From an uncultured Nitrospirales bacterium (GTDB lineage Bacteria > Hydrogenedentota > Hydrogenedentia > Hydrogenedentales > GCA-2746185): a stretch of 34,944 bases of DNA. The notes under the pieces were generated by a model. The model was not told the DNA's origin. It did no database searches and worked only from the letters and a program-made list of their open reading frames with translations. Numbering within the stretch: the first letter of the stretch is position 1; each line of letters starts with the position of its first letter. The stretch is taken from positions 1-34,944 of the forward strand of contig CAYUZD010000001.1 in the NCBI GenBank assembly GCA_964449475.1, read 5' to 3'. Of this stretch, positions 1,941-26,993 are shown one piece after another. The position numbers were made by a program, and so were the translations under genes.

Positions 1941-1950
1941 AAAATAATAC

Positions 1951-1979: not shown

Positions 1980-1985
1980 TATGCC

Positions 1986-2243: not shown

Positions 2244-2261
2244 GGGGGATTCTGGGCCGCG

Positions 2262-2290
2262 TTGCATCGCGCGGCGGTCGACCGTATACT
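2262..2290 (+). promoter_or_regulatory. sigma70-like promoter for the pnt operon (TTGCAT-17 nt-TATACT)
   Basis: TTGCAT at 2262-2267, a 17-nt spacer, then TATACT at 2285-2290. It lies between the terminator and the pntAA start codon. Confidence 0.5.
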
Positions 2291-2342
2291 ACGCGCCTTT
2301 CCGGTCCGGTTTGCGCTCCCTCCGAGGCTGTTTCTCGTTCCC

Positions 2343-3488: not shown

Positions 3489-3498
3489 GGGACACACG

Positions 3499-11691: not shown

Positions 11692-13734
11692 TCAGGATGC
11701 GGACGACGTCTGCGTCTGCCGCTTGAAGTACGAGTACAATTCCTTGAAACCGCCCTTTTCGGCCAGCGAGACGGCCGTCTCGCCGGAGTTGTTCCAGGTG
11801 AGCGGATCGGCGCCGCGTTCCACCAGCGCCCTCGCGAAGTCCACTTTGCCGGTTTCGCTGGCAAGGTGAAGCGGCGTGTTCCCGCGCGAATCCTTGACCT
11901 CAACGCGATATCCCGCGGCGATCATCGGTTCGAGGAGGTCGATTCGGCCGTCCTTCGCGGCGATGTGGAGCGGGCCGCCGAGCGGACTCTTGGTATCGGG
12001 CGTTGCGAAACCGTTCTTGAGGAGCATCAGCGCGACTTCGTCGGTTGAATTGAGTACCGCGGTCTCGATCGGGCTGCGGCCGGCACCAAGCCAGGCGCCC
12101 TTGTCGGCGCCGTACTCGAGAAGCACGCGCACGATTTCGGACTGATTGGTTTCCACCGCGATGGCGAGCGCGGATTCACCGTACAGCCCCTGAATTGAGA
12201 GCGCCTTGGGATCGTCCTGGCAATACTGCCGCACGCGGTCGGCATGTCCGAACCGGGCAGCATGCGTAACGTCGTATGGCACCCGGCCGACACCGCCGTC
12301 GTCGCTCGCGTTCGCGCCGGCATCCAGCAGCGCCTTGGCGACACGGCCGAGGGCGAGCGCGCGCTGCGAGGAACGCGGCAGCGACGCGACCGCCCTGGCG
12401 ACGCGATGCAGCGGAGTCCCCACACCTTCCATGCGCGCGTTGGGGTCTGCGCCCTGAATCAGCAACTGGCGGAGCTGTTCCGTTTCATCCTTGCCGGCAT
12501 CCGGATCATCGTCCCTGCTGCGCTCGATGGCCTTGACCGCCTCCGCGGTCGCGTCATGCGCCAGTCGCGCGCCCTCTTCCGATGCGCCGACGTGCGCCCC
12601 ACGGTCAATGAGCGCGGCGAAAAGCTCGTCGTCCGACTGGGCATAGGCGACGGATAGCGCGGTGCGGCCTGTATTGTCGCGCGCATTTATGTCCGCGCCG
12701 GCGTCGAGCAGGAGCCGGACGATGTCGGTCCGGCGCGCCTCGGCCGCGAGATGGAGCGGCGTGAGCTCGTTCTCATCACGCGCCTGGACATCGGCCTTTG
12801 CTTTGACGAGCACCAAGACGATCTCGGGCCGGGCCGACGCCGCGGCGAGCATGAGCGGCGTCCTGCCGTTCGCGTCCTTGGCGTCGATCTCAGCCTTGCG
12901 GCTGCGGGCGAGTTCCGTTGCGAGTTTGGTCATGCCCCGGTCGGCCGCCAGGTGCAGCGCGGTCGCGCCGTCTTCCGTCGTGGCGGTCGTGTTCCCAGCG
13001 AACTGAATCAATTGTGTCGCGAGGGATTCATCGTTGGAAGCGATGGCCGCGAGTTGGATCCGGCTCATCAGCGCGCCCAATCTGTCGGTTGAGCTGGTAA
13101 ACGTCGTCGAGGCTTCGACACGCGCATATCGGACGGCTATAAGATTGACGGTGAGCAGAATTAGGATGACGAGTCCGCTGCCCACGTTGGCGCGGACCGC
13201 GATCGATCTATTGCGAAGCGAGTTCAGATACAGGACCGCGATGCACGCCCCGCCCAGAATGCCGGAGGCGAACCCGACGATGCCCGTGAGTCCTTCGCCC
13301 TGATCGGTGACCGCATAGAGACGATCAAGGTCGCGCCGAATGACTTCGGAATTGGCCAGTCGCATTGACGCGGTGAGACTGTCGATCTTTCCGCGGATGG
13401 CGGTCAGGCTTTCGAGTGCCGCCAGGTCGGAACGACTCTGCAGGTCGAACACGCGCGGCATCGCGATCGTAAACACGAGCGGCACCATCAATGCGAGCAA
13501 CGTCGCCCGAACGTAATGCTCGCGACGGAATCGGAATCGACGTGCGGGTGGCGCGCCAGTGGCTGACCGTGGCGCAGCGGCAGGCGTTGAAACCAACTCC
13601 AGCTCCGCGGACGACTGTGCACGGGACCGGACACTCCGGAAACACGCAGGACACACGTTTCCGGAGATAAGTTTCGTGATTTCAGTGACTTGCCCGCATT
13701 TTGGGCAGGTCACGTCCCCTTCGGCGACGGACAC
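11692..13734 (-). CDS. membrane-anchored ankyrin-repeat protein with N-terminal zinc ribbon
   Basis: CPKCG-x16-CPAC at the N-terminus, three hydrophobic segments, then ~10-12 ankyrin repeats (G.TALHLAA, GRTPLMLAA, LTPLHLAAE, GNTPLHLAS...). GTG start. Confidence 0.8.
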   Translation of the reverse strand: MSVAEGDVTCPKCGQVTEITKLISGNVCPACFRSVRSRAQSSAELELVSTPAAAPRSATGAPPARRFRFRREHYVRATLLALMVPLVFTIAMPRVFDLQSRSDLAALESLTAIRGKIDSLTASMRLANSEVIRRDLDRLYAVTDQGEGLTGIVGFASGILGGACIAVLYLNSLRNRSIAVRANVGSGLVILILLTVNLIAVRYARVEASTTFTSSTDRLGALMSRIQLAAIASNDESLATQLIQFAGNTTATTEDGATALHLAADRGMTKLATELARSRKAEIDAKDANGRTPLMLAAASARPEIVLVLVKAKADVQARDENELTPLHLAAEARRTDIVRLLLDAGADINARDNTGRTALSVAYAQSDDELFAALIDRGAHVGASEEGARLAHDATAEAVKAIERSRDDDPDAGKDETEQLRQLLIQGADPNARMEGVGTPLHRVARAVASLPRSSQRALALGRVAKALLDAGANASDDGGVGRVPYDVTHAARFGHADRVRQYCQDDPKALSIQGLYGESALAIAVETNQSEIVRVLLEYGADKGAWLGAGRSPIETAVLNSTDEVALMLLKNGFATPDTKSPLGGPLHIAAKDGRIDLLEPMIAAGYRVEVKDSRGNTPLHLASETGKVDFARALVERGADPLTWNNSGETAVSLAEKGGFKELYSYFKRQTQTSSAS

Positions 13735-13910: not shown

Positions 13911-14222
13911 GTGCGCAAACGTACTCAAAACGCGACTTGGCAACTCCGAATAGGGATTTCCCTGTCCGTTTGCCTGTTAATGGCGTTTGCCGGGCACGGG
14001 CTGCTGCATCACCCTGCCGATGACGGCGGCGCGCATTCGAGCCCGCATTGCGCCATCTGTCAGTCCGGAAGCGGCCATGGCATCGCCGTGGCCGCACCGG
14101 ATGCCGCGGCGCCCGTCACGGATGCCGCCGATCGGGAGCGTCCGACCGGACTCGATACCCCGCGCCTCGAACCGGACTGGGCGCCGTCCTCCCCACGCTC
14201 TCCTCCCGCGTTTCTGTCCTAA
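13911..14222 (+). CDS. small hypothetical membrane/secreted protein with a His/Cys motif (HH-x12-H-C-x2-C)
   Basis: Same frame as track ORF 13827..14222. That start lies upstream of the promoter, so I prefer GTG 13911, giving a basic N-terminus plus hydrophobic segment ([16 protein letters not shown]) and then [23 protein letters not shown] recognise no family. Start and coding status are uncertain. Confidence 0.4.
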
Positions 14223-14343
14223 CTCACTCCAAAGAACTCATCGAACAACTGCCCGACGCGTCACTGCCCGGTACCGTCCGCGCTTGGTGGCGGTACGCAG
14301 TGCGCGCGGCAAAGGACTGCAACCCAACACGAGGAATGTCGTC

Positions 14344-15297
14344 ATGAATAAGCACAAGCAGGGTTTCACCCTGATTGAATTACTGGTCGTCATTGCCATC
14401 ATCGGAATACTCGCGGCGATCCTGTTACCGGCGTTGGCGCGTGCGCGCGAAGCGGCGCGCCGAGCGAGTTGTCAGAACAATCTGAAACAGATCGGGCTGT
14501 CGCTCAAGATGTACGCGAACGAGACGCGCGGTGAACGGTTCCCGCGGCTGCAGATAACGAATTGCGTGCCGGAAGTGCACGCCGCATGGAACTGGATGTT
14601 CGACATGACGGCGATGTATCCGGAGTACCTGCCGGATCTCGACGTGCTGATTTGCCCGAGTTCGCTTGGCGGCTCAACCGCCATCGAGCGATGGGATGAA
14701 GGCGATACGGAAAGCCCGCTTTGGGACCCCGTGTCGAACCCGCTGTTGGGCGTGTCGAACGACGGGAAGCTGACCGGCTGCGAAGTGGTCGACCATCCGT
14801 ATTACTACTACGGCTGGGCGCTGCATCGGAACATGTTCCGGTCGCTGACGGAATTCGTCGTACTGGAGGAGGCGCTGATCTTCAACTACGAAGAGCGAAT
14901 CGATCCGTTTGCAGATGCCGATGACATCGAAGGCGCGCAGGACTTCGTCGACGGTTCACTCGTGCTGGAGACCGCGCCGGACGTCTTTGGCACGATTGAC
15001 GGGCGGGACCGGCTCGAACGGCTGCGCGAGGGGATCGAACGGTTCTTTATCACCGATATCAACAACCCTGGCGCGTCGGCCCAGGCGGCGTCGGATCTCG
15101 TGGTGATTCACGACGCGATTTCACCGGAAGCAGATCACTTCAACCACGTTCCGGGCGGAGCGAACGTCTTGTACATGGACGGCCATGTGGAGTTCCAGCG
15201 CTGGATTCCGTCGCCGGAAAACGTTGGCGGTCAATTCCCGGTAAACGGCGCGGGACTTGTTCTACACGAAGTACCCGAGGAGTTAATCGGGCAGTAG
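14344..15297 (+). CDS. prepilin-type N-terminal cleavage/methylation domain protein, DUF1559 / H-X9-DG family (type II secretion pseudopilin-like)
   Basis: [27 protein letters not shown] prepilin motif directly after MNKH. C-terminal [17 protein letters not shown] matches the H-X9-DG signature. The track start at 13987 is a long Arg-rich spurious extension. Confidence 0.85.
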
Positions 15298-15971: not shown

Positions 15972-16550
15972 TCAGGCGTGGAGCTTGCGGAGCGTCGCGA
16001 CCAGTTTCCGCCCGAGGTTTTCGACGCCTTCCTGTTGCTTGGGATCCTTGAGCCGCCCGTCCGCGTCGAATACTTCGTGGGCCTTCGAGATGGCAAGTTG
16101 ATCCGGCAGCACTAGTACCTGGATGTTACCGAGGATCGCGCGCACATGCACCAGTCCGCGCAGGCCGCCGAGCGCGCCGGGCGAGGCGCTCATCAGAACG
16201 GCCGTCTTGCCCGCGAACGCCTTCAGCGGCGGATCGCCGAGCTCAGCGCGCGATGCCCAGTCGATCGCGTTCTTCAGCAGCGGCGTGATCGAGCTGTTGT
16301 ATTCGGGCGCGGCGATCAGGAACCCGTCGTGCCCGATGAGCAGGTTGCGAAACGTCCGGACGTGCGCCGGTAGGCCGTGGGCGGCCTCGTCGTCCTGATC
16401 GAACATTGGGAGCGGAAGCGCGTCCCAATCCACGATCGTGACCTGCGCGCCTGCGTCCCGTGCGGCGCTGGCCGCGATGCGGACGAGCCGCGTATTGAAC
16501 GAATCCATTCGCCGGCTTCCGGAGAATGCGACTACTTTTGGCGTATACAT
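15972..16550 (-). CDS. NAD(P)H-dependent FMN reductase family oxidoreductase
   Basis: KVVAFSGSRRMDSFNTRL... and FLIAAPEYNSSITPLLKNAIDW, the flavodoxin-like FMN_red signature. GGGAGA RBS. Confidence 0.85.
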   Translation of the reverse strand: MYTPKVVAFSGSRRMDSFNTRLVRIAASAARDAGAQVTIVDWDALPLPMFDQDDEAAHGLPAHVRTFRNLLIGHDGFLIAAPEYNSSITPLLKNAIDWASRAELGDPPLKAFAGKTAVLMSASPGALGGLRGLVHVRAILGNIQVLVLPDQLAISKAHEVFDADGRLKDPKQQEGVENLGRKLVATLRKLHA

Positions 16551-16580: not shown

Positions 16581-17369
16581 TTACACAATAACGGTCGGGT
16601 TGCCGTCCGGTACGCAGAGATACCGATCGAAGTCGGTGTAACCCAACGCGCGGAGAAAATCCTCGTCGATCAACGCCTGTCCGTTGGAGCGTTCAGGATG
16701 CTGAACGATTTCATACGAGGCATCGGCCAGAATGTCGGCCTTGCGCCAGACACTGGGATCTCCGAGCTGGAAATTGATCGTGGCGTAGGATTCGATGAGC
16801 GTCTTCGGCCAAAGTGCGGTCGCGCGGATGTTCAGCGAGCCGAATTCCTTGGGCAGGCCGTGCGCGATCATGGTCATGCCGAACTTGCTGATGCAGTAGC
16901 CGATGTGGCCGGGGAGCATGTCCATCGTGATCGGTGGCGACATCACGATGACATGACCGGAGTTCTGCCGCTTCATCGCCGGCAGGAAGGCGGCGGTCAC
17001 GGCGAAGGACCCGCGTACGTTCACGTTCATCATCAGGTCGAAGCGCTTCATCGGCGTTTCGTCCATCGTCTTCCACCAGAGCGCGCCGGCGTTGTTGATG
17101 ACGACGTCGACCCGGCCAAACCTGTCGAGCGCCACCTGCGCGGCCTGGTCTACGCTTTGCAGGTCGGTCACATCGCAGCGGACGGGGAACACCTCGGTGC
17201 CGTGCCGCGAGACCTCGTCCGCGGCGGTAAAGATCGTGCCGGGGAGCTTTGGGTTTTCCTCGGTGGTCTTTGCGGCGATGACAATGTCGTAGCCGGCCTG
17301 GGCGAATCGGTGCGCGCACGCCTTGCCTATGCCGCGCGACCCGCCGGTGATGAATGCGACCTTGCTCAT
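16581..17369 (-). CDS. short-chain dehydrogenase/reductase (SDR), HSDL2-like
   Basis: FITGGSRGIGKA cofactor motif, NNAGA, Y-x3-K (YCISKFG). The start ATG overlaps the upstream hydrolase stop (ATGA). Confidence 0.88.
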   Translation of the reverse strand: MSKVAFITGGSRGIGKACAHRFAQAGYDIVIAAKTTEENPKLPGTIFTAADEVSRHGTEVFPVRCDVTDLQSVDQAAQVALDRFGRVDVVINNAGALWWKTMDETPMKRFDLMMNVNVRGSFAVTAAFLPAMKRQNSGHVIVMSPPITMDMLPGHIGYCISKFGMTMIAHGLPKEFGSLNIRATALWPKTLIESYATINFQLGDPSVWRKADILADASYEIVQHPERSNGQALIDEDFLRALGYTDFDRYLCVPDGNPTVIV

Positions 17370-18238
17370 GGCGACTCCTCCACTACTGTATTGGCCTCAG
17401 CGGCCCTTGCGAGCCTCTCGACGGCGCTGCGTACGTCGGTTTCCGCGTTCCACGGGATGAAATGGTTCTTGCCCTCAAGGACGACGGTGTCCACAATCTG
17501 CCCGGTCGGAAAGTTCCGCTCCATGAACGCGACATTCGAGAACGGCACCAGGATGTCGTCCGGCGCGTGGAGGATGATAACAGGACAGGCGATCCCGGCG
17601 AGCCGTGGTTGCAGCGATTCGAGTTCGGCCTTCATCGGCAACAGCTCGCGGTTGCTGTTTCGCAGGAACCGCGGGATCATGTAGGCGATCACGGGAAGAT
17701 TGGCGATGCATTGATACCAGGCGACTTTTTCCTCCGCCGGGTCGAGCGAACCCGAGAGGATGACGAGGCCCCCGACGCGGCCGGGATAATCAGCCGCCAC
17801 TTGCGCGACGATGGGTCCGCCGAGGGAATGGCCGATGAGGACGGGCCAGCGTCCACCTCGCTGGACGAGGAACGGCTCGATGCACTCGGCTTGTTCGCGA
17901 AGCGTGAGCGCCGGTCGCCGGGGCCGGGTGCGGCCGAATCCGGGGCGATCGATCGAGATCGACTCGAAGCCCGGGATGGGCGACTGCACATATGAGCGGA
18001 ACGCGTTTGCATCGCCCGGGGTGCCGTGGACATAGATGAGTCGCGGCGCATCGGCCGCAGCTGCCGGTTGCCGGATGTAACTGATTGACCAGCCTACTGG
18101 TACTTCCAACTGTCCGCGCACGACGTCCTCGGCGTCCTCGGTTTCAACGATCGCGTCGAAGACCTGGCACGATCCGATCTCGAACACGATCAAGGCGAGC
18201 AACGCGACGCCCAGCTTCCACAAGCGACTCCGACGCAT
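17366..18238 (-). CDS. alpha/beta-fold hydrolase with N-terminal membrane anchor
   Basis: GHSLGG nucleophile elbow and HGTPGD oxyanion region. I prefer ATG 18238 (MRRSRLWKLGVALLALIVF), which leaves 1 nt after the OlsA-like stop; the track start at 18301 would overlap that gene by 62 nt. Confidence 0.8.
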   Translation of the reverse strand: MRRSRLWKLGVALLALIVFEIGSCQVFDAIVETEDAEDVVRGQLEVPVGWSISYIRQPAAAADAPRLIYVHGTPGDANAFRSYVQSPIPGFESISIDRPGFGRTRPRRPALTLREQAECIEPFLVQRGGRWPVLIGHSLGGPIVAQVAADYPGRVGGLVILSGSLDPAEEKVAWYQCIANLPVIAYMIPRFLRNSNRELLPMKAELESLQPRLAGIACPVIILHAPDDILVPFSNVAFMERNFPTGQIVDTVVLEGKNHFIPWNAETDVRSAVERLARAAEANTVVEESP

Positions 18239-18239
18239 G

Positions 18240-19076
18240 CTAGGCGCGGTCGCGGCTGGCTTCCAGCAACCCAGCGACGGCTTCGCGCGCCTTCGCGGCA
18301 AGCGCTTTGCGGTCGGCGCCGGTCTCCGTGGGGATCGGATCGCCGAAGCTGACCGTCACGCGAATGCCGCGCAGACCGATCGCGCGCCAGGCGTGCGTGA
18401 CGAAGTTGTGTTCAGGCCGCCAGTAGGCGACGTCTTCCGAGATGCTCAGCGACGACGAGTCGACGAACCAGTTCAACGCGACGGGAACGATCGGCGTGCC
18501 GGTGTCAACGGCGGGCTGCGCGAGCGACGCATAGAAGGGAAGCATGCGCGAGCCGTCCGTGGACGTCCCCTCGAGGAAGACACACACCCTCAGTCCGCCG
18601 TCGAGGCGTTCGGCGATAGAGGCGTTGACGCCGCTGAGGCTGCGGCGATCGGAACGCATGACGCCGATGTGCTCCGACATATCGAATAAGTGGCCCACGA
18701 CGGGCCACGACCGCACGTCCGCCTTCGAGACGAAGACCGCGGGGCAGGCGGCGCCGACCGCGAGAATGTCGAGATACCCCAGGTGATTCGGCACGAGCAA
18801 CGCGGGCGCCGGGGGAAGCGAACCGCGCACGTCGATCCGAATACCGGCGATCGGCGCGCCGCGGCGCAGCCAGCGATGGGTCCATTCCGCTGACCGTGCG
18901 CGCTTCTCGGCGCGATCGGAAGTCGCGGCGCGGCTCACGAGACAGCCGCAGTAGCAATACAGCGTCCACGCGGCGAAACCGCCGAGGCGCGCGATGGCGA
19001 GCAGCGGGTTCGACCATGCGCGGGCCGCGGGGCGTGCTTCGGACGGCGAATCCGCGCCCACTTCTCCGGGATTCAT
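18240..19076 (-). CDS. lysophospholipid/lyso-aminolipid O-acyltransferase, PlsC family (OlsA-like)
   Basis: H-x4-D motif NHLGYLD and the FLEGTSTDG motif, with an N-terminal hydrophobic segment. 4-nt start/stop overlap with the upstream OlsB-like gene. Confidence 0.8.
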   Translation of the reverse strand: MNPGEVGADSPSEARPAARAWSNPLLAIARLGGFAAWTLYCYCGCLVSRAATSDRAEKRARSAEWTHRWLRRGAPIAGIRIDVRGSLPPAPALLVPNHLGYLDILAVGAACPAVFVSKADVRSWPVVGHLFDMSEHIGVMRSDRRSLSGVNASIAERLDGGLRVCVFLEGTSTDGSRMLPFYASLAQPAVDTGTPIVPVALNWFVDSSSLSISEDVAYWRPEHNFVTHAWRAIGLRGIRVTVSFGDPIPTETGADRKALAAKAREAVAGLLEASRDRA

Positions 19077-19915
19077 TCCAATACGTCCAGCCGCGAGAGC
19101 GCCACCTGTTTACCGTCCATCATGACGAGAAAATCCACGGTGCCGAAATCGCGATCGATGGCGGGTTCGGAAACGACGACCGAGCCGAGCTTCAGATAGG
19201 TGCGAAACAGTTTGGGCAATTTGAGCGCGGGTCCGAGATCCGGGGCCAACTCACGTTCGGGAGGACCGCAGGAATGGCTCGGGCGCGCACGGACGAGGAC
19301 GTCGGCATGCAAGCAGTTTCCTTCACGGACGGTTTTCATCGCGCGCCAGCCGTCGTCGGGATCTTGCGTGGTCAGGGAACAACAGCCGAACAGATACCGC
19401 GAGCCATAAGCGTTCATGAATCCGCCGATACCGAGCCACATGGTGATCATCGCGCGGAAGTTTCGATGATCCGCGGCGAGGCACGCGCGTCCGAGTTCGA
19501 TGCTCTCGGCAAAATAGGGTTCAAGCGGCGCGAGGTCGTATTCCTCGGCGCAGTAGACTCCGCCGGTCGCGAGAGCGTGTTGAATGGTCTGCAAGCGATA
19601 CGTGCCCACCACACGACCGGACTCGCGGTGAATCAGGACGAGGTGCGTCATCTGTTCGTCGTAGCGATCTCGATCCAGCCCGATCGCCATCGACGACGCG
19701 AGGCCCTCCTCCAATTCGAGATTGAACACCTCGAATCGCAATCGCTGGGCCGCCTCGACGCAGCGCCGGGAGTTGGCGAAGCCCGCGACGTAGCGGTCCG
19801 CGGGCGTGTGCGGCAGCGCGAGGAAGTCCACGTCGCGCGGGCGGCGCTCGAAGTCCTCCGCGCTGGAAAACGCGCCCCAGGACAGCCTGCCTTCCTCGCG
19901 TTCTACGTGGGCCAT
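19073..19915 (-). CDS. GNAT-type N-acyltransferase of the OlsB / 'hemolysin-like' family (amino acid N-acyltransferase for aminolipid synthesis)
   Basis: AQRLRFEVFNLELEEGL, DRYDEQMTHLVLIH..GRVVGTYRL, YCAEEYDL and IELGRACLAADHRN match the OlsB-like family pattern. Paired with a PlsC-type gene as in olsBA. The amino acid substrate cannot be read from the sequence. Confidence 0.75.
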   Translation of the reverse strand: MAHVEREEGRLSWGAFSSAEDFERRPRDVDFLALPHTPADRYVAGFANSRRCVEAAQRLRFEVFNLELEEGLASSMAIGLDRDRYDEQMTHLVLIHRESGRVVGTYRLQTIQHALATGGVYCAEEYDLAPLEPYFAESIELGRACLAADHRNFRAMITMWLGIGGFMNAYGSRYLFGCCSLTTQDPDDGWRAMKTVREGNCLHADVLVRARPSHSCGPPERELAPDLGPALKLPKLFRTYLKLGSVVVSEPAIDRDFGTVDFLVMMDGKQVALSRLDVLE

Positions 19916-19948: not shown

Positions 19949-21601
19949 TCAACCGGCCATAGGATAGTTGCGTGCAAGACGGTGGTAGCTTATCACATCC
20001 CTAAGGAATTGAACGGGGCCGATCGGCTTGTGACCGGTCCGGCGATTGATGTCTCCGATACCGAACAAGATTCGGTACTGTTCGAACAGGGTGCTGTACG
20101 CATCGGACAGCGCGGCATCGGCGTCCCAGATATGGGTCGCTTCGGCGCCCGCGCCATTGATCTCCACGATCAAGAATCCCTCGCCGCGCTGAAAAGATTC
20201 CAAGTCGCGGAAGCGGATGTCGAAACGGCCGAAGTAGAACTGCGGTAGGGACTGCGCGATTTCGTCGATGCGCGCAGTGAGCGCGGGCGTGAGCACGTGC
20301 AGACCGTCCTTGAAGATGCAGCCCTGCGCGTGGTTCCCGGCGAAGACCAGCGGGAACTTCTGGCCGTCGGGTATGATGCGGTCGAGCGTGGCCTCGTGTC
20401 GCTTGAAGTACACCTCGGCGATCAGCCGGGCGCGGTCGTCGGCCTGAATCAGCTCGCGCAGCGATCGGCGGCCGTCGCCCACAACCACCGGGAACTCCTT
20501 GAGCGTGATGGAGATCACGCGCCCGCGCTCCTCGTGCGGCATCCGGTAATACATCACGCCGGCCTCATGCTGGAATGGCGCGAGTGTTTGCAACACGAGC
20601 AGATTGCCGCGCGGGAAGACCGAGAAATAGTCGCGAAGTTCGTCGGCGGTGCGCACCGGCCGCACTCCGGCGCCGCGCTGGCCCATGTCGGGCTTGGCGA
20701 CAATCGGGAACGTAATGCCGGCGGCCGCGAGCGCGTTCAACGCATCGCCGACATGGGTATCGACGGGCAGGCCGTCGTCGCTGTAAAAAAAAGTCGTGTG
20801 TGGAGCGACCCAACGGCGCGAGATCTCCGGGACGAGCGCGAGAATCTGGCTCTTGGACTCCCGGATCATGCCGCCGGAATAGATGGATGGGTTGACGGAG
20901 GTGGGCAGCGTGAGGCTCCGATAGCGAAGCGCGAGCCAGAAGTAATACGCCGCGACCGGCGTGTAGAACAGCCAGGGGTGCCAGAACTCGAAGAACGACG
21001 CGGGCGCCTCCTCCGCGGAGACACTCTCGGGGTCCGTGCTCATTTGCTTGTACGACCGGCGCTGGATGTACATGACCGCGGCGATGAGCGCGATGCCGAT
21101 GGGCCACTTCAGATCGCCGAGAATCGGCATGACGGCGCTGCCGACCCGCGAGATCAGCGTGAGTACGATGAAGTTCCACAGCAGCGAGGCAAAGAGGGCG
21201 GACGGGAGATACGTCCGCAGGCTCGCGCGCGCCATGCCTGCGGCGATGTTCGCAGGCAATCGAAGCCCCGGGACGAACCGCGAGACGAGGATGGCGGTGA
21301 ACATGTTCTCGTCGAACCAGACGCGGATGCGCTCGAGCCGGGCCTGCGAAACGAATTTCCAGGCAACGAGCTTCGGTCCCAGGAAGCGCCCGGCGACGTA
21401 CAGCCCCCAGTCGCCCACCCCGATGCCGATCGACATGCTGACGAGCGCGGTGGAGTACGCCATGCTGCCATCGGCGACGAGCAGACCGACGGCGATAATC
21501 GTCGGGTCTTCGAGTACGAAGCTGCACGCGATCGCGAGCATGCCCTGAAGGATCGGGTCGTTCGAGAGTGCGTGCAGTGCCCGATCGAACAGTTCGGCCA
21601 C
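19949..21601 (-). CDS. fusion protein: N-terminal DedA/VTT (SNARE-associated) membrane domain plus C-terminal ATP-grasp carboxylate-amine ligase domain
   Basis: The N-terminal ~175 aa is DedA-like (EDPTIIAVGLL..., SRFVPGLRLPANIAAG), followed by extra TM segments. The C-terminal region has ATP-grasp motifs (PIVAKPDMGQRGAGV, LVLQTL..HEAGVMYY, GRFDIRF...FLIVEINGAGAE). The GTG start lies 1 nt after the NRDE stop. Confidence 0.75.
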   Translation of the reverse strand: MAELFDRALHALSNDPILQGMLAIACSFVLEDPTIIAVGLLVADGSMAYSTALVSMSIGIGVGDWGLYVAGRFLGPKLVAWKFVSQARLERIRVWFDENMFTAILVSRFVPGLRLPANIAAGMARASLRTYLPSALFASLLWNFIVLTLISRVGSAVMPILGDLKWPIGIALIAAVMYIQRRSYKQMSTDPESVSAEEAPASFFEFWHPWLFYTPVAAYYFWLALRYRSLTLPTSVNPSIYSGGMIRESKSQILALVPEISRRWVAPHTTFFYSDDGLPVDTHVGDALNALAAAGITFPIVAKPDMGQRGAGVRPVRTADELRDYFSVFPRGNLLVLQTLAPFQHEAGVMYYRMPHEERGRVISITLKEFPVVVGDGRRSLRELIQADDRARLIAEVYFKRHEATLDRIIPDGQKFPLVFAGNHAQGCIFKDGLHVLTPALTARIDEIAQSLPQFYFGRFDIRFRDLESFQRGEGFLIVEINGAGAEATHIWDADAALSDAYSTLFEQYRILFGIGDINRRTGHKPIGPVQFLRDVISYHRLARNYPMAG

Positions 21602-21602
21602 G

Positions 21603-22376
21603 TTAGCGGGCCTTCGCGAGCGACCTCGCGGGCGCGAGCGGCAGGGAACAGTGCGCGCCCGGCTCGCGCGAGTCGGGAGCCGGCTCGGGCCAATAGCGCA
21701 ACTCGACGCGCCCCGACTCTGGAAGTATGCGGGCCTGCGTGATGCTGCGCGTAGCGGACCACGAGCGGCGCATCAGCGGCGAGCGTTCCGCGTGGCCGGG
21801 TTCCTGAATCAGGTGGAATGAGGGAAGCGTGCCGACGTGCGGCTCGCCTTCACGACGCCACTGCGCGAAGCGCTCCTCGCGCCAAAGCCGCACATCGAGA
21901 CTGTCCCAGCCGGACGACGATCGCAATACCCAATCCTCGACGAGTTCCGTCTCCGCCGGCCCGTGTTCGCCGAGCCACTCCCACGACACCGCGCCCTCAG
22001 GACTCGCGACCAGCAGCGTAAACGACGGGTAGGCATGCGGATCGAGCGAGTCGCGGAGCCAACGCCGCGCGGCGCGCCCGTCTCCCTGCGCCAGCAGCGT
22101 GGAGACAATCTCGCCGCGGGTGCGGAATCGTCCGGTTGTGTCGGGCAGGAGGCTCTCGCCCGGCTGATAGGCGTTGAGCAGGCACGCCACGACGCCGTAA
22201 TTGTTCACGCCCATCCAGGTCCCGCCGCGCTCACTGTCACGCGGGGCAATCCAGGCGACGCCGTCCGGCGCGTGCATAATCTCGGGCCGGAGTTCCGGTG
22301 CGCGAATTAGCGCCTCGTCCCGGTTCATCGTGGCGACAAGCGCGCCGTTCCCCCGGTAGATGGTGACGGTGCACAT
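21603..22376 (-). CDS. NRDE-family protein (TANGO2 homolog; Ntn-hydrolase-like with Cys2)
   Basis: Starts MCT..., contains the eponymous NRDE motif (ATMNRDE), and GGTWMGVNNYGVVACLLN. Confidence 0.8.
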   Translation of the reverse strand: MCTVTIYRGNGALVATMNRDEALIRAPELRPEIMHAPDGVAWIAPRDSERGGTWMGVNNYGVVACLLNAYQPGESLLPDTTGRFRTRGEIVSTLLAQGDGRAARRWLRDSLDPHAYPSFTLLVASPEGAVSWEWLGEHGPAETELVEDWVLRSSSGWDSLDVRLWREERFAQWRREGEPHVGTLPSFHLIQEPGHAERSPLMRRSWSATRSITQARILPESGRVELRYWPEPAPDSREPGAHCSLPLAPARSLAKAR

Positions 22377-22394: not shown

Positions 22395-22919
22395 CTACCC
22401 TTTGACGGCTTGCTGGTGCGCGGCGGTGGAGAACGCCAGGGAGATTTCCTCGGGCAACTCGACATCGTGTTCGCGGCAGAGATGCACCACGATCGCGAGA
22501 TGGTGAATGGTGTGTCCGGAGAGGAACGCGAGCTCGCGCCCGACGGTGCTCTCGACGACGTCCGGTTCGGCGTCCAGCGAGACGGACTGCCGGACGCGCA
22601 GGGGAGTCGTCACCGATGACGCGGACACGGCGGCGAGTCCCGTGCGCACGTCCCGCAGTCTCTCGCGGAAGCAGTCGATGCTGCGCTCGAGCATCTCGTC
22701 ACGCGCGCGGGAATCGTAATCGACGATCCCGTCATTCAATCCCGCAAGGAAGCACTGGAAGTGTTCGAGCGCGTGGCGGAGATGCGAGCCCACGGGGTAG
22801 CGCCCCGGCAACGCGCCGGCGTACATCTCGGGCGTGATCGCGTCGATCACGCGCTCGCACCGGTCGCAGGCATCGAGACACCCGCGCACGGCCGCGCACT
22901 CAGAGTGGGTGGTGGACAT
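22395..22919 (-). CDS. DinB-family (DinB_2-like) metal-binding four-helix-bundle protein
   Basis: 174 aa with a His-triad pattern (SHLRHALEH ... GHTIHHLAIV) typical of DinB/YfiT-like proteins. Confidence 0.65.
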   Translation of the reverse strand: MSTTHSECAAVRGCLDACDRCERVIDAITPEMYAGALPGRYPVGSHLRHALEHFQCFLAGLNDGIVDYDSRARDEMLERSIDCFRERLRDVRTGLAAVSASSVTTPLRVRQSVSLDAEPDVVESTVGRELAFLSGHTIHHLAIVVHLCREHDVELPEEISLAFSTAAHQQAVKG

Positions 22920-23174: not shown

Positions 23175-23840
23175 ATGCGTGGTGTTTCGATGTTTTTGGG
23201 TCTTTCGTTGGTGCTGACGGCAATTCCGCTGTTCGCGGAAGAAGCCGGAAAGGTCCAGCTCGGTATTGAGTTGCCGGAGCCGTATTTCGGCGGCACGCCG
23301 CTGGACTATTTCGGGCCGAACCTCGAGGAACCGAACTACAAGCCGCGTCCGCCGTTCATGGTGCCGGAAGGAACCGAGAACGTGGCCAAGGGCAAGCCGG
23401 TAACCGCGAGTTCCGCAACGCAGTTCGGCGACCTGGCCATGCTGGTGGACGGCGACAAGAGCTACAAGGACGAGAGCCTGCTGGGACTCGATCGCGGACA
23501 CCAGTGGATTCAGATCGACCTGGGTGCGGCGTACGATATTTACGCGGTGCTTTTCTGGCACTTCCACCAAGGGGATCGGGTGTACTTTGACGTGGCGATC
23601 CAGGTGGCGGACGATGCCGCCTTCACGCAGAACGTGCGGACGATTTTCAACAACGATCACGACGACACCGCGGGTATGGGCGCGGGCAAGGACAAGGAAT
23701 ACATCGAGAACTATCGCGGCAAATTCTTCGACACCGGCGGCGTGAAGGCACGGGCCATCCGGTTCCTCAGCAAGGGGAACACGACGGACGACTTCAATCA
23801 TTACGTCGAAGCGGAAGTGTTCGGCAAGCCGGCCGAGTAA
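23175..23840 (+). CDS. secreted discoidin (F5/8 type C, galactose-binding-like) domain protein
   Basis: Signal peptide MRGVSMFLGLSLVLTAIPLFA. NVAKGKPVTASS...LVDGD...WIQIDLG..YDIYAV is the classic discoidin opening. AGGAAAGG RBS. Confidence 0.75.
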   Translation: MRGVSMFLGLSLVLTAIPLFAEEAGKVQLGIELPEPYFGGTPLDYFGPNLEEPNYKPRPPFMVPEGTENVAKGKPVTASSATQFGDLAMLVDGDKSYKDESLLGLDRGHQWIQIDLGAAYDIYAVLFWHFHQGDRVYFDVAIQVADDAAFTQNVRTIFNNDHDDTAGMGAGKDKEYIENYRGKFFDTGGVKARAIRFLSKGNTTDDFNHYVEAEVFGKPAE

Positions 23841-23852
23841 GCCGGAGCGATT

Positions 23853-25442
23853 GTGTCCCGGCGCTGGTCGAGGCGCATCGCGCACGGCACCCCCTACGCC
23901 GCCATACTGCTGATCGCCGCCGCGGGGCTCGTGGTGCGATCGGCCGAACTCGAATACCGGCCGGTGCACGGGGACGAAGCGAACCAGGCGTACAAGGCCG
24001 GGAAGCTGCTCGATACGGGGCGGTACGTCTACGATCCCCACGACCACCACGGGCCGACGCTGTATTACCTCGCGCTCATTCCGTTCTACCTGACCGGCAC
24101 GAATTCGCTCGCCGATGCGGATACGTGGATGGTGCGGATCGTGCCGGTGGCGTTCGGCGCGGGCCTGATCGCGCTGCTCGCATTGGCACGCCGCGAGATC
24201 GGCACCGGCAGCGCGATCTGCTCGGGACTGATCCTGCTCGCCTCTCCCGCGTTTACGTTTTACTCCCGATACTTCATCCAGGAGACTTTGCTCGTCTTCT
24301 TCACGTTCGCCGCAATCGTGTTTGCCTTGCGGTATCTGCGGAGTCCGCGACTCGGATGGGCCATCGCGTTCGGAATCGCAATAAGCCTGATGCATGCGAC
24401 GAAGGAAACGACCGTCCTTGCCTACTCGGCGATGGCGGTGTCTGGTGTCGTTGTGTGGATGCTGCACGGCCGCACGAAGGATAAAGAGAGCGAGACCACG
24501 CAACCTTCGCTGCGCCATGGCGTGGCCGCAATCGGGGTAGCGCTCGCCGTCAATGTGGTGTTGTTCAGCGCGTTCTTCACGCACTGGCGCGGTCCGCTGG
24601 ACAGCGTCCTCACGTATGCAAACTATTTCGATCGTGCCTCCGGAAGCCACATCCATGACAAGCCGTGGTACTACTACCTCTCGCTGTTGTGGTACACGAA
24701 GCGCGCGCCGGGGCCGTGGTGGAGCGAGGGGCACGTGCTCGCGCTGGGGTTGGCAGGAATAGTTCTCGCGTTCATGCGGCCGCCGCGCGGCACGGAGGAC
24801 GCCGCGCCGTTCGCCCGGTTTCTCGCGCTGTACACGTTGCTGCTTGCAATCGCGTATTCAGTGATCCCCTACAAGACCCCGTGGAGCATGTTGAGTTTCT
24901 ATTTCGGTATTGTCTTGCTCGCGGGGATGGCCGTGTCACGCGCAGTCCACGTGGCACCTGCCGGGTGGCGCCGGGCGCTGGTGGTCATTGCGTTCGGGCT
25001 CGTGTTGACGCACCTAAGCGTTCAATCCTGGCGCGCGGAGACCGTCTACGCGGCAGACGTCCGCAATCCCTATGTATACGCGCATACATCGACGGCGTTG
25101 GTGCGCTTCGTCGATCAGGTCGAGGGCATCGCGGCGTCGAGCCCATCGGGCCGGAACGTGTCTATCAAGATCATTCAGCCTGATGCCGACTACTGGCCGC
25201 TTCCGTGGTATTTGCGCCGCTACCCTAACCTTCACTATGTCCATGGCGTACCGGAAGACGCCGACGCGGACATCGTGATAGTCGACCCGAGACTCATCGA
25301 CTCCGTATCCACAAGTTTCCAGGACGAGTACTTCGGTCCGTTCACCGCGGGCCTGCGTCCCGGCGTGCTGCGCGCCGTGTTCGTACGCGAGGACCTCTGG
25401 GAGGCGTACATGGACTCGCGCGGTGCCGTGTCCGACGACTAG
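23853..25442 (+). CDS. GT-C fold membrane glycosyltransferase (ArnT/PMT GT39/GT83-like, TIGR03663-type)
   Basis: 529 aa, ~11 TM segments, early periplasmic-loop motif VHGDEANQAYKA and a large C-terminal soluble domain. GTG start 12 nt after the discoidin gene stop. Confidence 0.7.
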   Translation: MSRRWSRRIAHGTPYAAILLIAAAGLVVRSAELEYRPVHGDEANQAYKAGKLLDTGRYVYDPHDHHGPTLYYLALIPFYLTGTNSLADADTWMVRIVPVAFGAGLIALLALARREIGTGSAICSGLILLASPAFTFYSRYFIQETLLVFFTFAAIVFALRYLRSPRLGWAIAFGIAISLMHATKETTVLAYSAMAVSGVVVWMLHGRTKDKESETTQPSLRHGVAAIGVALAVNVVLFSAFFTHWRGPLDSVLTYANYFDRASGSHIHDKPWYYYLSLLWYTKRAPGPWWSEGHVLALGLAGIVLAFMRPPRGTEDAAPFARFLALYTLLLAIAYSVIPYKTPWSMLSFYFGIVLLAGMAVSRAVHVAPAGWRRALVVIAFGLVLTHLSVQSWRAETVYAADVRNPYVYAHTSTALVRFVDQVEGIAASSPSGRNVSIKIIQPDADYWPLPWYLRRYPNLHYVHGVPEDADADIVIVDPRLIDSVSTSFQDEYFGPFTAGLRPGVLRAVFVREDLWEAYMDSRGAVSDD

Positions 25443-26176
25443 AGGGATCCGGTTGCGCGGTACGCTCCGCGCCAGGACCGGACGCGTACGCGCAGGACCT
25501 CGCGAATCATCACGAGCGTATGGCGAATCGGGCGTACGCGTGTGTCGGTTGAGTTAATCCACCGGACGGGTATCTCGACGACGCTGAAACCCTGTTGTTG
25601 CGCGGCGACGAGGAGTTCGCAGTCGGCGCCGAACCCGTCGATGACCAGCCTCGGGACGACGCGATCGCTCACGGCGCGGTCGAATGCCTTGAACCCACAT
25701 TGCGTGTCGCGAAAAGCCGTCAACCCAAGCACTCGCAGCAGCGTGTTGTACACGCGGCCCATAATGCGGCGGTGCCTGGGCTGTGGCACTTCGACGCGAC
25801 TGCCGGGCAATGCGCGGGATCCAATCACGACCGAGGCGCCCTTCGCGAGTTCTGCCCACACACGTTCGACTTCTTCGATCGGGGTCGACGCGTCGGCGTC
25901 GTAGATGAGACAGACCTCGCCGCGAGCGGCCCGCACCCCCTCGCGCGTGGCGTAGCCTTTGCCGCGATTTTGCGCATAGTGCACGACGCGAACGCCTGGG
26001 AACGCCTTCGACACAACCCCTGCCGTATCGTCGCCGCTTCCGTCGTCCACGACGATGATCTCGAACGCATAGGGTTGGGCGCGCAGATATCTCTCGGCCT
26101 TCTCGATGGTCGCGGACACCCTCGCGGATTCGTTGTACGTGGGGATAATGAGCGACAAACGAGGGGCGGGATTCAT
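25439..26176 (-). CDS. family 2 glycosyltransferase, polyprenyl-phosphate hexosyltransferase-like
   Basis: LSLIIPTYNES, IIVVDDGSGDDT, DAD and QCGFKAF motifs. ATG 26176 gives the canonical N-terminus; the track start at 26368 adds 64 atypical residues. Confidence 0.85.
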   Translation of the reverse strand: MNPAPRLSLIIPTYNESARVSATIEKAERYLRAQPYAFEIIVVDDGSGDDTAGVVSKAFPGVRVVHYAQNRGKGYATREGVRAARGEVCLIYDADASTPIEEVERVWAELAKGASVVIGSRALPGSRVEVPQPRHRRIMGRVYNTLLRVLGLTAFRDTQCGFKAFDRAVSDRVVPRLVIDGFGADCELLVAAQQQGFSVVEIPVRWINSTDTRVRPIRHTLVMIREVLRVRVRSWRGAYRATGSL

Positions 26177-26327
26177 GCGGACGGCGGCCAATGGGTTCGA
26201 AGCTTCGGAAAGAGCCGAACTGTAACAAATCGGGGGAGGCCGGACAACGGCGCCCCGCCGCTGTTGGGCGCCTTTTTTCCGCGCTTGCGTGCATATACAA
26301 TGCCAGGGCAGGTACGGAGCGGCTCGC

Positions 26328-26993
26328 ATGGACCCCTCGGACGGCGCACCCACCCTCGAACGCGGCATTCAGCCCCGGCGTCAACCGATGCAGCAGCGCA
26401 GCCGGGACCGCGTCGAGAAAATACTCGACGCCGCCGCGCAGTTGCTCGCCGAGGACGGCTACGACGCGGTGAAGACCAATGCGATCGCGGCGCGGGCCAA
26501 GGTGTCGATTGGGTCGGTCTACCAGTTCTTCCCGAACCGGTTCGCGATTTTCAATGCACTCGCGGAACGCTACCGGTCGAAGATCAGCGAGTCGTTGCGC
26601 ATCCACCTTGCGCCGGCGACGATCGACGATTGGGACGAGGCGCTCGAGAACACGATCGACAGTCTGGCGACGCTGTGGCGGACGGATTGGGCGTTCCACT
26701 CGGTATGGCTGGCCATTCAGAACACGGCGGAGCTGCGCGACTCGAGCGAACACTATCGCAGCGCGCTCATCACCAGTCCGCTTGCCGAGTTCCTGAAGCG
26801 GCTTCTGCCGGGGCTGCCTCGCAACCAGATTCTGACGATGGGCCGCGTGATTCTCGAGACGAGCAACCTTTTACTCGACCTCTCGATGCGCGGCGGACCG
26901 AATCAGGACGAGTCCATCATCGACGAACTCAAGTTCGTCCTGCATCGGTACATCCGGGGTCACATCGAGGCGGCGCGCGCGCCGCGCTCCTGA
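26328..26993 (+). CDS. TetR/AcrR-family transcriptional regulator
   Basis: RDRVEKILDAAAQLLAEDGYDAVKTNAIAARAKVSIGSVYQFFPNR is the TetR HTH signature. GGAG lies 8 nt before ATG 26328. Confidence 0.85.
   Translation: MDPSDGAPTLERGIQPRRQPMQQRSRDRVEKILDAAAQLLAEDGYDAVKTNAIAARAKVSIGSVYQFFPNRFAIFNALAERYRSKISESLRIHLAPATIDDWDEALENTIDSLATLWRTDWAFHSVWLAIQNTAELRDSSEHYRSALITSPLAEFLKRLLPGLPRNQILTMGRVILETSNLLLDLSMRGGPNQDESIIDELKFVLHRYIRGHIEAARAPRS

Follow-up and report, generated by a model that had tools for sequence, protein, structure and literature searches.

The window, a 34,944-nt stretch of contig CAYUZD010000001.1 (assembly GCA_964449475.1) from an uncultured Nitrospirales bacterium, carries on its minus strand a tightly packed operon centred on a 550-residue fusion protein (19949..21601), which begins with a GTG codon. 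The first gene of the operon encodes a DinB_2-superfamily protein of 174 residues (22395..22919; PF12867, E 3.9e-5, just below the cut-off) with invariant histidines H46, H49, H136, H139 and H140, for which neither a single-sequence search nor a family-profile search found a solved relative. It is followed by a TANGO2/NRDE-family protein of 257 residues (21603..22376; PF05742, 51.3 bits against a cut-off of 22.6), which starts with Met-Cys (MCT), contains the NRDE motif and matches TANGO2 structures in the PDB (8sv7 and 9bwa, E 6e-5). All 30 cluster-linked homologues that have the NRDE motif start with (M/V)-Cys. The stop codon of this gene lies one base before the start of the fusion gene (TAAcGTG).

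Downstream of the fusion gene, after 33 nt, lies an OlsB-like N-acyl amino acid synthase of the GNAT Acetyltransf_5 family (19073..19915; PF13444, E 2.9e-26), whose stop is overlapped by 4 nt by the start of an OlsA-like lyso-aminolipid O-acyltransferase of the PlsC family (18240..19076; PF01553, E 1.3e-21). Both score far below the equivalog cut-offs of the ornithine-lipid enzymes, with 134.6 and 110 bits against 350 and 320 for the OlsB models and 117.9 and 97 bits against 300 for the OlsA models, and thus N-acyl-ornithine is not established as the product. Next comes an exported or membrane-anchored alpha/beta-hydrolase (17366..18301; Abhydrolase_1, E 1e-19), with a likely start at the ATG at 18238, one base after the OlsA stop, and the N-terminus MRRSRLWKLGVALLALIVFEIGSC. 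The hydrolase is followed, with a 4-nt overlap, by an SDR oxidoreductase (16581..17369; adh_short, E 1.6e-41; NF006133, 295.8 bits, above the cut-off of 250) and by an NADPH-dependent FMN reductase as the last gene (15972..16550; FMN_red, E 6.5e-40). The last two genes belong to the operon only in the closest relatives, with the SDR in the same gene order in four other loci and the FMN reductase in three of these. A promoter and terminator scan of the operon gave nothing above the shuffled expectation, and a PADLOC search with six operon proteins returned no anti-phage defence hit.

Domain architecture of the fusion protein

The N-terminal part of the protein (residues 1-190; 21032..21601) is a DedA/VTT membrane domain. 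Residues 33-150 (nt 21152-21505) match PF09335 at 65.5 bits against a cut-off of 33.9 (E 8e-18), and hydrophobic segments were found at about residues 17-46, 52-70, 130-164 and 155-179. In an alignment of 26 diverse homologues, E31, D32, D64, R108, P111, G112, R114 and P116 are invariant, and these include the acidic pair of the first re-entrant helix and the basic R..PG.R motif of the second that are the signature of YqjA and VTT proteins. The domain is not an equivalog-level match to a characterized transporter, as the UptA models score 39.3 and 28 bits against cut-offs of 250 and 300 and the DedA model PRK10847 scores 28.3 bits against 236.

The DedA domain is followed by an invariant aromatic, proline-containing hydrophobic segment (residues 200-228; 20918..21004; S202-x-FEFW-x-P209...F212 Y213-x-P215...RYRS) flanked by basic residues, which the predicted structure renders as helices 203-206 and 209-226. 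We infer that it is an interfacial or re-entrant anchor on the cytoplasmic face. The sequence-only reading had described extra transmembrane helices here, whereas we find this one segment, at about residues 203-226. It is connected to the C-terminal domain by a loop (residues 229-260; 20822..20917; LPTxxNPxIYxGGxxxESKxxIL) with invariant P233, P238, I240, G244, E248, S249, K250, I253 and L254, inferred to be a substrate-binding element held at the membrane surface.

Residues 286-495 (20117..20746) form an ATP-grasp core that escapes Pfam: no ATP-grasp family was found at E<=0.01 on the whole protein, and even at E<=10 the only hit on residues 196-550 was CPSase_L_D2 (E 0.32), although two longer relatives give weak ATP-grasp_3 and Dala_Dala_lig_C hits. 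A single-sequence search of the PDB gave only marginal hits (E 0.07 and above). In contrast, NCBIfam returned a weak cyanophycin synthetase hit on residues 292-483 (E 1.6e-5), and a family profile matched, over residues 286-490, the G domains of the cyanophycin synthetases CphA2 and CphA1 in the PDB (8fxh, 1.9e-6; 7ta5, 5.2e-5; 7txv, 3.9e-4). The fold was also recovered from an AlphaFold2 model (pLDDT 84, with only moderate interdomain confidence, pTM 0.65), for which the top 50 Foldseek matches are all ATP-grasp enzymes at probability 1.0 (best E 4.4e-9), led by cyanophycin synthetases, GshAB and D-Ala-D-Ala ligases (7ta5, 7wae, 7txv, 3ln7 and Ddl).

The catalytic motifs are intact. VAKPDxGQRGxGV (301-313, with K303 and the Gly-rich loop G307-V313) and ExNGAGAE (480-487, with E480 and N482) are invariant in the 26 homologues, as are R459 and D461 of the R-x-D motif; these residues align with the corresponding CphA motifs and correspond to DdlB R255/D257/E270/N272. 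Further motifs are GDG at 375-377, N423/H424 and THIWD at 489-493. Homology to CphA starts only at about residue 286, and residues 227-285 contain one strand and short helices in the model, judged from its secondary structure alone, where ATP-grasp enzymes usually have an N-terminal sub-domain. The protein ends in a conserved helical tail (residues 496-550; 19952..20116; helices 498-521 and 529-543) with invariant L498, Y502, F506, Q508, G516, N519, R520, Y546 and P547.

The matches to L-amino-acid ligases and glutathione synthetases (3vot in the profile search, 3ln7 and 3ln6 by fold) raise the possibility that the ATP-grasp makes a soluble small molecule, such as a dipeptide, a modified amino acid or a low-molecular-weight thiol, which would be either the head-group donor that the OlsB-like enzyme N-acylates or a product exported through DedA, the membrane segment merely co-localizing the enzymes. 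DinB-fold enzymes are often thiol-dependent, and DoxX, AhpC, MsrB and a YeeE-type sulphur transporter occur among the neighbours. We consider this reading unlikely, since the aromatic anchor is kept even in stand-alone ATP-grasp relatives and a membrane domain appears to replace most of the usual N-terminal substrate domain, both of which argue for a membrane-bound substrate, and since DedA proteins are known as transporters of lipids, not of small peptides.

Conservation, gene linkage and further fusions

The fusion is conserved and widespread. A word-indexed search gave 1066 hits, of which the best 120 are 541-572 residues long, cover 97-100% of the query, are 49-83% identical to it and all carry a precomputed PF09335 match. 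More than 100 full-length homologues from many phyla therefore share the same length, which excludes a frameshift artefact. The C-terminal module alone finds 2863 clusters at 50% identity, and 319 relatives were found among the GTDB species genomes. Sources name the family only 'DedA', 'VTT domain-containing' or 'hypothetical protein', and thousands of proteins are therefore under-annotated.

Among the 150 best cluster representatives there are 85 DedA-grasp, 49 stand-alone, 9 hydrolase-DedA-grasp, 2 hydrolase-grasp and 1 TANGO2-hydrolase-DedA-grasp proteins; stand-alone proteins align from query residue about 196-200 and so retain the aromatic segment. The two halves are separate adjacent genes in Burkholderiales and separate genes about 1-3 kb apart in sphingomonads, and the split DedA genes keep the DedA motifs. 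In Novosphingobium silvae, the stop of a hydrolase gene overlaps the start of the stand-alone grasp gene, and this hydrolase is 44% identical to the one in the window.

The linkage to lipid genes extends far beyond the window. Within 4 kb of the 45 loci that have at least 3 kb of flanking sequence on both sides, an OlsB/OlsF-like gene occurs in 37, DinB in 25, TANGO2 in 18, OlsA in 16 and the hydrolase in 16; among all 82 loci, DinB is present in 48. Two synthase architectures are recruited, either OlsB plus OlsA or a fused OlsF-like protein, the cluster-linked OlsF-like proteins scoring 353-418 bits against an equivalog cut-off of 620. The linkage has exceptions, as eight of the 45 loci lack such a gene and two sphingomonad loci have DedA, hydrolase and grasp but no OlsB within 8-10 kb, and the substrate need not always be an OlsB product. 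Many recurrent neighbours are redox or stress proteins (YHS, DoxX, AhpC, cytochrome c peroxidase, MsrB, Rieske protein, FMN reductase) that our favoured explanation does not account for. Since single-linkage clustering of six-frame ORFs merged several families through overlapping, stop-to-stop high-GC ORFs, we used only its clean clusters (YHS, DoxX and Rieske-type).

A GT-C (PMT/ArnT-like) gene and a GT2 gene lie within about 4 kb on the other side of the operon's upstream end. With UptA as the best NCBIfam hit of the DedA domain, they could point to polyprenyl-phosphate handling, in which DedA recycles undecaprenyl phosphate as UptA does and the ATP-grasp acts as a kinase or ligase on a polyprenyl-linked intermediate. 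This is very unlikely: the UptA score is far below its cut-off, the glycosyltransferases are separated from the operon by a gene on the opposite strand and are not among the conserved neighbour families in the 82 loci, the conserved linkage is instead to OlsB-like genes, and the R-x-D and E-x-N motifs and CphA-like profile point to carboxylate-amine ligation.

Orthologues of the hydrolase carry signal or lipobox sequences, and the TANGO2-hydrolase-DedA-grasp mega-fusion has a hydrophobic helix between TANGO2 and the hydrolase, so that a step outside the cytoplasm is implied. PDB matches of the hydrolase include 6i8w (E 1.5e-8), the membrane-anchored phospholipase PlaF of Pseudomonas aeruginosa. 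These observations, the stress and redox neighbours and a weak hit of the OlsA-like protein to the fused LplT-Aas model NF006386 would also suit a salvage or repair route by vectorial ligation like that of LplT-Aas, whose logic is a flippase joined to an ATP-dependent enzyme. In this view the hydrolase, or envelope damage, produces a lyso-lipid, free fatty acid or amino-acid fragment in the outer leaflet, DedA flips it inward and the ATP-grasp re-ligates it on the cytoplasmic face using ATP, with TANGO2 and DinB acting in the same recycling route. We regard this as unlikely, since no acyl-ACP/CoA synthetase-type chemistry is needed if an ATP-grasp is present, no ATP-grasp enzyme is known to us to activate long-chain fatty acids, and co-transcription with de novo synthases suggests biosynthesis more than salvage.

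A proposed aminolipid-modification module and its relation to known systems

The observation made by the sequence-only reading, of a DedA domain and an ATP-grasp joined in one ORF, is confirmed. Its interpretation, that an MprF-like fusion directly upstream of aminolipid acyltransferases could ligate an amino acid to a lipid head group and translocate the product, is partly supported. The conditions under which it would have failed did not materialize: the C-terminal domain is an ATP-grasp, separate halves remain adjacent or within about 3 kb, and the fusion is not a sequencing artefact. Regarding its remark that it knew of no characterized member with this architecture, we likewise know of no biochemical or genetic data on any member, although no literature search supports this.

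Our favoured explanation, to which we assign a probability of roughly 0.45, is that the gene encodes a bifunctional inner-membrane enzyme of a conserved aminolipid-modification module. Homology shows that the neighbouring acyltransferases are of the kind that build an N-acyl(acyloxyacyl) amino-acid lipid with a free carboxylate, that the C-terminal domain is an ATP-grasp with intact catalytic residues closest to the cyanophycin synthetase G domains, and that the N-terminal domain belongs to a family containing lipid and polyprenyl-phosphate translocators. Everything beyond this is inferred, including ligase, ATPase and flipping activity, the lipid substrate, the ligation partner and the direction of transport. 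In this model, the FEFW...P...P segment holds the ATP-grasp on the cytoplasmic face, where it would convert the head-group carboxylate of the aminolipid to an acyl-phosphate and couple to it an amino acid or a similar small amine, as the G domain and RimK phosphorylate a terminal carboxylate of a larger substrate and add a free amino acid to it. The DedA domain would then move the lipid with its extended head group to the outer leaflet, where the exported hydrolase would de-acylate or trim it, and TANGO2 (an N-terminal-Cys, Ntn-hydrolase-like protein) and DinB (a His-rich metalloenzyme) would be cytoplasmic accessory enzymes of the same pathway. The choice of the phosphorylated partner and of the flipping direction rests on analogy only, and the orientation of the active site toward the membrane is assumed.

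The reverse polarity is possible but less likely. The ATP-grasp would then phosphorylate the carboxylate of a free amino acid and transfer it, without tRNA, to an amine or hydroxyl of a membrane lipid such as the delta-amine of ornithine lipid, PE or PG, with DedA flipping the product outward and the hydrolase removing the modification, making the system a true functional analogue of MprF with an aminoacyl-PG hydrolase. It shares the architecture and context evidence, Ddl/VanA-type ligases activate a free amino acid and accept amine or hydroxyl nucleophiles, Ddl structures are among the fold matches, and it would explain loci without an OlsB because PE and PG are universal. However, the closest sequence relatives are the CphA G domains, which activate the carboxylate of the larger substrate, and the strong OlsB/OlsF linkage would only make sense if the aminolipid supplied the nucleophile.

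A bolder proposal, possible but less likely than not on present evidence, is that the fusion is the core of an unrecognized, widespread lipid pathway, in which the anchored ATP-grasp builds, without tRNA, an extended and possibly thiol-carrying head group on an OlsB-type aminolipid, DedA exports the product and bacterial TANGO2 is a dedicated enzymatic partner. TANGO2 is linked to the fusion gene by a 1-nt junction here and is fused into a single TANGO2-hydrolase-DedA-grasp protein elsewhere. If the proposal holds, this would be, as far as we know, the first ATP-grasp acting on a membrane lipid; it would define a substrate for a DedA protein and provide a concrete biochemical setting (an N-acyl amino-acid lipid or acyl-thioester amidase/transferase) for the human disease gene TANGO2, whose function is disputed.

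DedA proteins are nearly universal, yet very few have a known substrate, and a DedA domain fused to an enzyme within a lipid-synthesis operon points to its cargo and makes that cargo testable. A lipid-directed ATP-grasp would add an ATP-driven, tRNA-independent route to head-group diversity alongside MprF, and the repeated coupling to TANGO2 offers a genetically tractable bacterial setting for a human disease protein. Cultured hosts include Ideonella alba, Herbaspirillum sp. Sphag64, Novosphingobium silvae and Glacieibacterium frigidum.

The proposed logic matches that of MprF and its companion aminoacyl-PG hydrolases (PA0919 and AcvB/VirJ-type), as one polypeptide combines an N-terminal membrane domain of a translocator family with a C-terminal, putatively cytoplasmic and head-group-modifying enzyme and an exported alpha/beta-hydrolase is encoded in the same operon. 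This is an analogy and not family membership: Pfam finds only VTT_dom and neither LPG_synthase_TM nor DUF2156, there is no sequence or fold relationship, ATP would replace aminoacyl-tRNA, the translocator is DedA and the linked genes are for aminolipids rather than PG. The LplT-Aas system likewise couples, and often fuses, a lipid flippase to an ATP-consuming enzyme acting on the flipped lipid at the cytoplasmic face, but its folds are unrelated (MFS plus adenylate-forming enzyme and PlsC) and it works inward.

The G domain of CphA1/CphA2 and RimK share with residues 286-495 the VxKP, Gly-rich loop, GDG, NxxxGG-like and ExN motifs, at only 15-18% identity in the fold alignments. The protein is not a cyanophycin synthetase, since only the G-like region aligns, it lacks the N domain and the Mur-ligase-like M domain, its N-terminal half is a membrane domain and TIGR02068 scores 23.1 bits against a cut-off of 850. 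With the DedA/VTT transporters (UptA, PetA, YqjA/YghB, TMEM41B/VMP1) it shares the VTT domain, the acidic pair and the RFxPGxRxP motif, yet no characterized member known to us is fused to an ATP-grasp. The neighbouring genes share the Acetyltransf_5 and PlsC acyltransferase domains of the OlsB/OlsA and OlsF ornithine-lipid and GlsB/GlsA glycine-lipid synthases and give their best hits to these models, all below equivalog level, and none of the known Ols modification enzymes (OlsC, D, E, G) is, to our knowledge, an ATP-grasp.

Domain anatomy and distribution of the DedA–ATP-grasp protein

The window encodes a 550-residue ORF at 19949..21601 on the minus strand, whose GTG start codon lies one base after the TAA stop codon of the upstream gene (TAAcGTG). 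Residues 33-150 match the Pfam VTT/DedA domain well above threshold (65.5 bits against a cut-off of 33.9, E 8e-18), whereas Pfam reports nothing for the C-terminal half, even at E<=10. The sequence-only reading had nevertheless assigned this half to the ATP-grasp ligases, and our data show that this observation was correct. NCBIfam yields a weak match of residues 292-483 to the ATP-grasp region of cyanophycin synthetase (E 1.6e-5), and a profile built from 26 diverse homologues hits the G domains of CphA2 and CphA1 in the PDB (8fxh, 1.9e-6; 7ta5, 5e-5; 7txv/7lg5, 4e-4). An AlphaFold2 model (mean pLDDT 84, pTM 0.65) has cyanophycin synthetases, the ATP-grasp of GshAB, biotin carboxylase domains and D-Ala-D-Ala ligases as its best PDB fold matches (E from 4e-9, probability 1.0). 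The catalytic signature is also invariant in the family and aligns with the CphA motifs: K303 within VAKP, the glycine-rich loop G307-V313, R459-x-D461 and E480-x-N482, the latter two corresponding to R255/D257/E270/N272 of DdlB.

An artificial fusion created by a sequencing frameshift had been named as a result that would refute the ‘modify and flip’ reading of the fusion, and is ruled out. The 120 best database hits are 541-572 residues long, cover 97-100% of the query and are 49-83% identical to it; they originate from Hydrogenedentota, Sumerlaeota, Acidobacteriota, Geobacter, Methylomirabilis, Poribacteria and others, and are named only ‘DedA family’ or ‘VTT domain-containing’ by their sources. 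A scan of one genome per GTDB species found 319 relatives, and a HMMER search with residues 196-550 alone found 2863 clusters at 50% identity, of which 1117 have E<=1e-30.

Residues 1-190 form the DedA domain, which carries the acidic pair E31/D32 and the motif R108-F-x-P-G-x-R114-x-P. A poorly modeled acidic linker (residues 193-197, pLDDT below 50) leads to an invariant, very aromatic segment with two prolines (S202-x-FEFW-x-P209-x-x-F-Y-x-P215...RYRS), followed by an invariant loop (LPTxxNPxIYxGGxxxESKxxIL, residues 229-254), the ATP-grasp core (about residues 286-495) and a conserved helical tail. Stand-alone relatives begin just before the aromatic segment, so that the unit that moves in evolution is the aromatic anchor plus the ATP-grasp. 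Basic residues follow both the last DedA helix (RRSYK, 181-186) and the aromatic segment (RYRS, 226-229), from which we infer, on sequence grounds and without recourse to the model coordinates, that the aromatic segment is an interfacial or re-entrant anchor on the cytoplasmic face rather than a full membrane crossing.

Fused and split architectures and their genomic context

Among the 150 best cluster representatives, 85 are DedA-grasp, 49 are stand-alone, 9 are hydrolase-DedA-grasp, 2 are hydrolase-grasp, 1 is TTC38-like-grasp, 1 (P0210, a 1121-residue protein) is TANGO2-hydrolase-DedA-grasp and 3 carry an N-terminal extension that matched none of the models used. In Burkholderiales, including cultured Ideonella alba, DedA and grasp are separate, abutting genes. 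In sphingomonads they are separate genes about 1-3 kb apart, and in Novosphingobium silvae the stop codon of the hydrolase gene overlaps the start of the grasp gene. Cultured carriers are Ideonella alba 3Y2 (locus L074), Herbaspirillum sp. Sphag64 (L081), Novosphingobium silvae FGD1 (L078) and Glacieibacterium frigidum (L083). A protein of roughly 410 residues sits between DedA and the grasp or hydrolase genes in sphingomonads (locus L078, 7924-9147; locus L083, 6695-7951); Pfam gives it only a weak TPR_14 hit, it looks TTC38-like, and it is fused directly to the ATP-grasp module in the 773-residue protein P0136. Together, these split and fused forms are strong evidence that DedA, the ATP-grasp, the hydrolase and TANGO2 work together.

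In the window, the fusion gene is the third of eight tightly packed genes on the minus strand, in the order DinB_2 (22395-22919), TANGO2/NRDE (21603-22376), the fusion (19949-21601), an OlsB-like GNAT (19073-19915), an OlsA-like PlsC acyltransferase (18240-19076), an alpha/beta-hydrolase (17366-18301), an SDR (16581-17369) and an FMN reductase (15972-16550). The junctions are 1-nt spacers, 4-nt overlaps or gaps of 18-33 nt. The likely true start of the hydrolase is the ATG at 18238, one base after the OlsA stop codon, and not the TTG at 18301. The DinB_2 protein belongs to a subfamily with invariant H46, H49, H136, H139 and H140, and no sequence relative was found among solved structures, even with a 25-sequence profile. 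The TANGO2/NRDE homologue starts with Met-Cys and has the NRDE motif, and its linkage to the fusion gene recurs in 34 of 82 loci.

Just beyond the upstream end of the operon (23175-26993) lie an F5/8-type-C domain protein, a PMT/ArnT-like GT-C glycosyltransferase, a GT2 glycosyltransferase on the opposite strand and a TetR regulator. A role of the fusion protein in polyprenyl-phosphate handling is the weakest of the alternatives we considered, since the UptA score of the DedA domain is far below its cut-off and the PMT and GT2 genes are not conserved neighbors of the fusion gene in other loci, nor are the other genes of this group. The window holds a second, unrelated ATP-grasp, a RimK-type ligase with a C-terminal TrkA_C domain, about 0.5 kb from an M20-family peptidase (5273-6478 and 7031-8509 for the pair, both on the minus strand). 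It also encodes, at 11692-13734 (-), 13987-15297 (+) and 27343-29946 (-), a 680-residue ankyrin-repeat protein, a prepilin-type N-methylation/DUF1559 protein and a fused SecDF. DUF1559 proteins are typical of Planctomycetota-like genomes, whereas the closest loci are binned as Nitrospirales or Hydrogenedentales, so that the taxon of the window is uncertain.

To assess the context elsewhere, we searched six-frame ORFs of 82 loci with the proteins of the window. The order DinB-TANGO2-fusion-OlsB-OlsA-hydrolase recurs in Hydrogenedentota, Sumerlaeota and the closest relatives, the latter being those binned as Nitrospirales or Hydrogenedentales. Acidobacteriota have DinB-fusion-OlsF-like, and Geobacter has DinB-TANGO2-DoxX-OlsF-like-cytochrome c peroxidase-YHS-fusion. 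Burkholderiales have OlsB-like (divergent), hydrolase, DedA, grasp and DinB, with YHS, DoxX or TANGO2 nearby in some loci. The locus of P0210 (L084, with P0210 at 1790-5155) reads DinB, P0210, then OlsF-like on the opposite strand, then TMEM164-like. Among the 45 loci with at least 3 kb on both sides, an OlsB/OlsF-like gene lies within 4 kb in 37, DinB in 25, TANGO2 in 18, OlsA in 16 and the hydrolase in 16. The acyltransferases all score far below the NCBIfam equivalog cut-offs for OlsB, OlsA and OlsF, and we therefore refer to them only as aminolipid synthases of unknown head-group specificity, of which two different architectures are recruited to the same module.

A secreted YHS-domain protein (23 loci) and a DoxX-like membrane protein (20 loci) are further conserved neighbors of the DedA/ATP-grasp genes in Proteobacteria, Geobacter and Myxococcota (locus L003, 2957-3352 and 7524-7976; the Ideonella alba locus L074, about 12010-13400; L083, 5120-6083), with AhpC-like, cytochrome c peroxidase, MsrB and YeeE-type sulphur-transport genes also nearby. 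A membrane protein of roughly 650 residues lies upstream of DinB in 11 loci, mostly from Hydrogenedentota (loci L010, 6640-8652; L030, 6639-8621; L054, 7271-9460), and by eye its sequence resembles a ferric-reductase-type transmembrane domain followed by a Rieske [2Fe-2S] motif (CRHQGGP...CPWHGW). None of the models discussed here explains this recurrence of redox and stress genes (YHS, DoxX, AhpC, cytochrome c peroxidase, MsrB, the Rieske/ferric-reductase membrane protein and FMN reductase), or the lack of a nearby OlsB in sphingomonad loci.

Inferred mechanism and comparison with known systems

The hydrolase is predicted from its sequence to be exported. It has a signal or lipobox-like N-terminus (MRRSRLWKLGVALLALIVFEIGSC) that is conserved in orthologues, which carry an N-terminal signal with a lipobox-like Cys (for example ...LAAVGC... 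and ...EIGSC...) or a signal anchor. In P0210, a hydrophobic helix separates TANGO2, which must stay cytoplasmic because its N-terminal Cys is the presumed nucleophile, from the hydrolase. The PDB sequence matches of the hydrolase include 6i8w (E 1.5e-8), the membrane-anchored phospholipase PlaF of Pseudomonas aeruginosa. In this view, one component acts outside the cytoplasm while the ATP-dependent one must act inside, which requires transbilayer movement of something, and the DedA domain is the obvious candidate. We favor outward movement by analogy, although an inward salvage and re-ligation system similar to LplT-Aas is an alternative.

Homology establishes that the neighboring enzymes are of the kind that makes N-acyl amino-acid lipids, that the ATP-grasp is catalytically intact as judged from its motifs and that a DedA domain is present, whereas the activities of these proteins and the pathway that would connect them are our inference. 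We propose that the anchored ATP-grasp phosphorylates a head-group carboxylate and couples an amine to it, that DedA moves the product outward, that the exported hydrolase turns it over and that TANGO2 and DinB, with its invariant histidines, are cytoplasmic accessory enzymes. All 30 cluster-linked TANGO2 homologues that have the NRDE motif start with (M/V)-Cys. We assign this general model a probability of about 0.45 and are less confident in its polarity. We favor activation of the lipid's own alpha-carboxylate because the closest relatives, the CphA G domain and RimK, extend the carboxylate of the larger substrate; with the opposite polarity, the amino acid would be activated and the lipid would supply the nucleophile, as in a tRNA-independent MprF analogue. 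The ATP-grasp might instead make a soluble product, a dipeptide or a thiol, that is then N-acylated or exported.

No source gives any member a functional name beyond DedA or VTT, ‘hypothetical protein’ or, once, ‘D-alanine--D-alanine ligase’. No characterized member, and no ATP-grasp shown to act on a membrane lipid, is known to us, a statement that does not rest on a survey of the literature. The module is of interest because it offers testable substrates for a DedA protein and a bacterial handle on TANGO2, and the P0210 fusion of TANGO2, a transmembrane helix, an alpha/beta-hydrolase, DedA and the ATP-grasp could bear on the disputed function of human TANGO2.

The protein matched no known anti-phage defense protein. 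It is not a cyanophycin synthetase, since it scores 23 bits against a cut-off of 850 and has no N or M domain, but it is a member of the DedA family and of the ATP-grasp superfamily. The MprF-like ‘modify and flip’ interpretation of the sequence-only reading is partly supported. The protein resembles MprF on paper, combining a translocator and a putative head-group enzyme with an exported hydrolase, yet it is not a member because neither MprF domain is present. A head-group enzyme fused to a flippase is the known arrangement, and what is new here is that it would be built from different parts.
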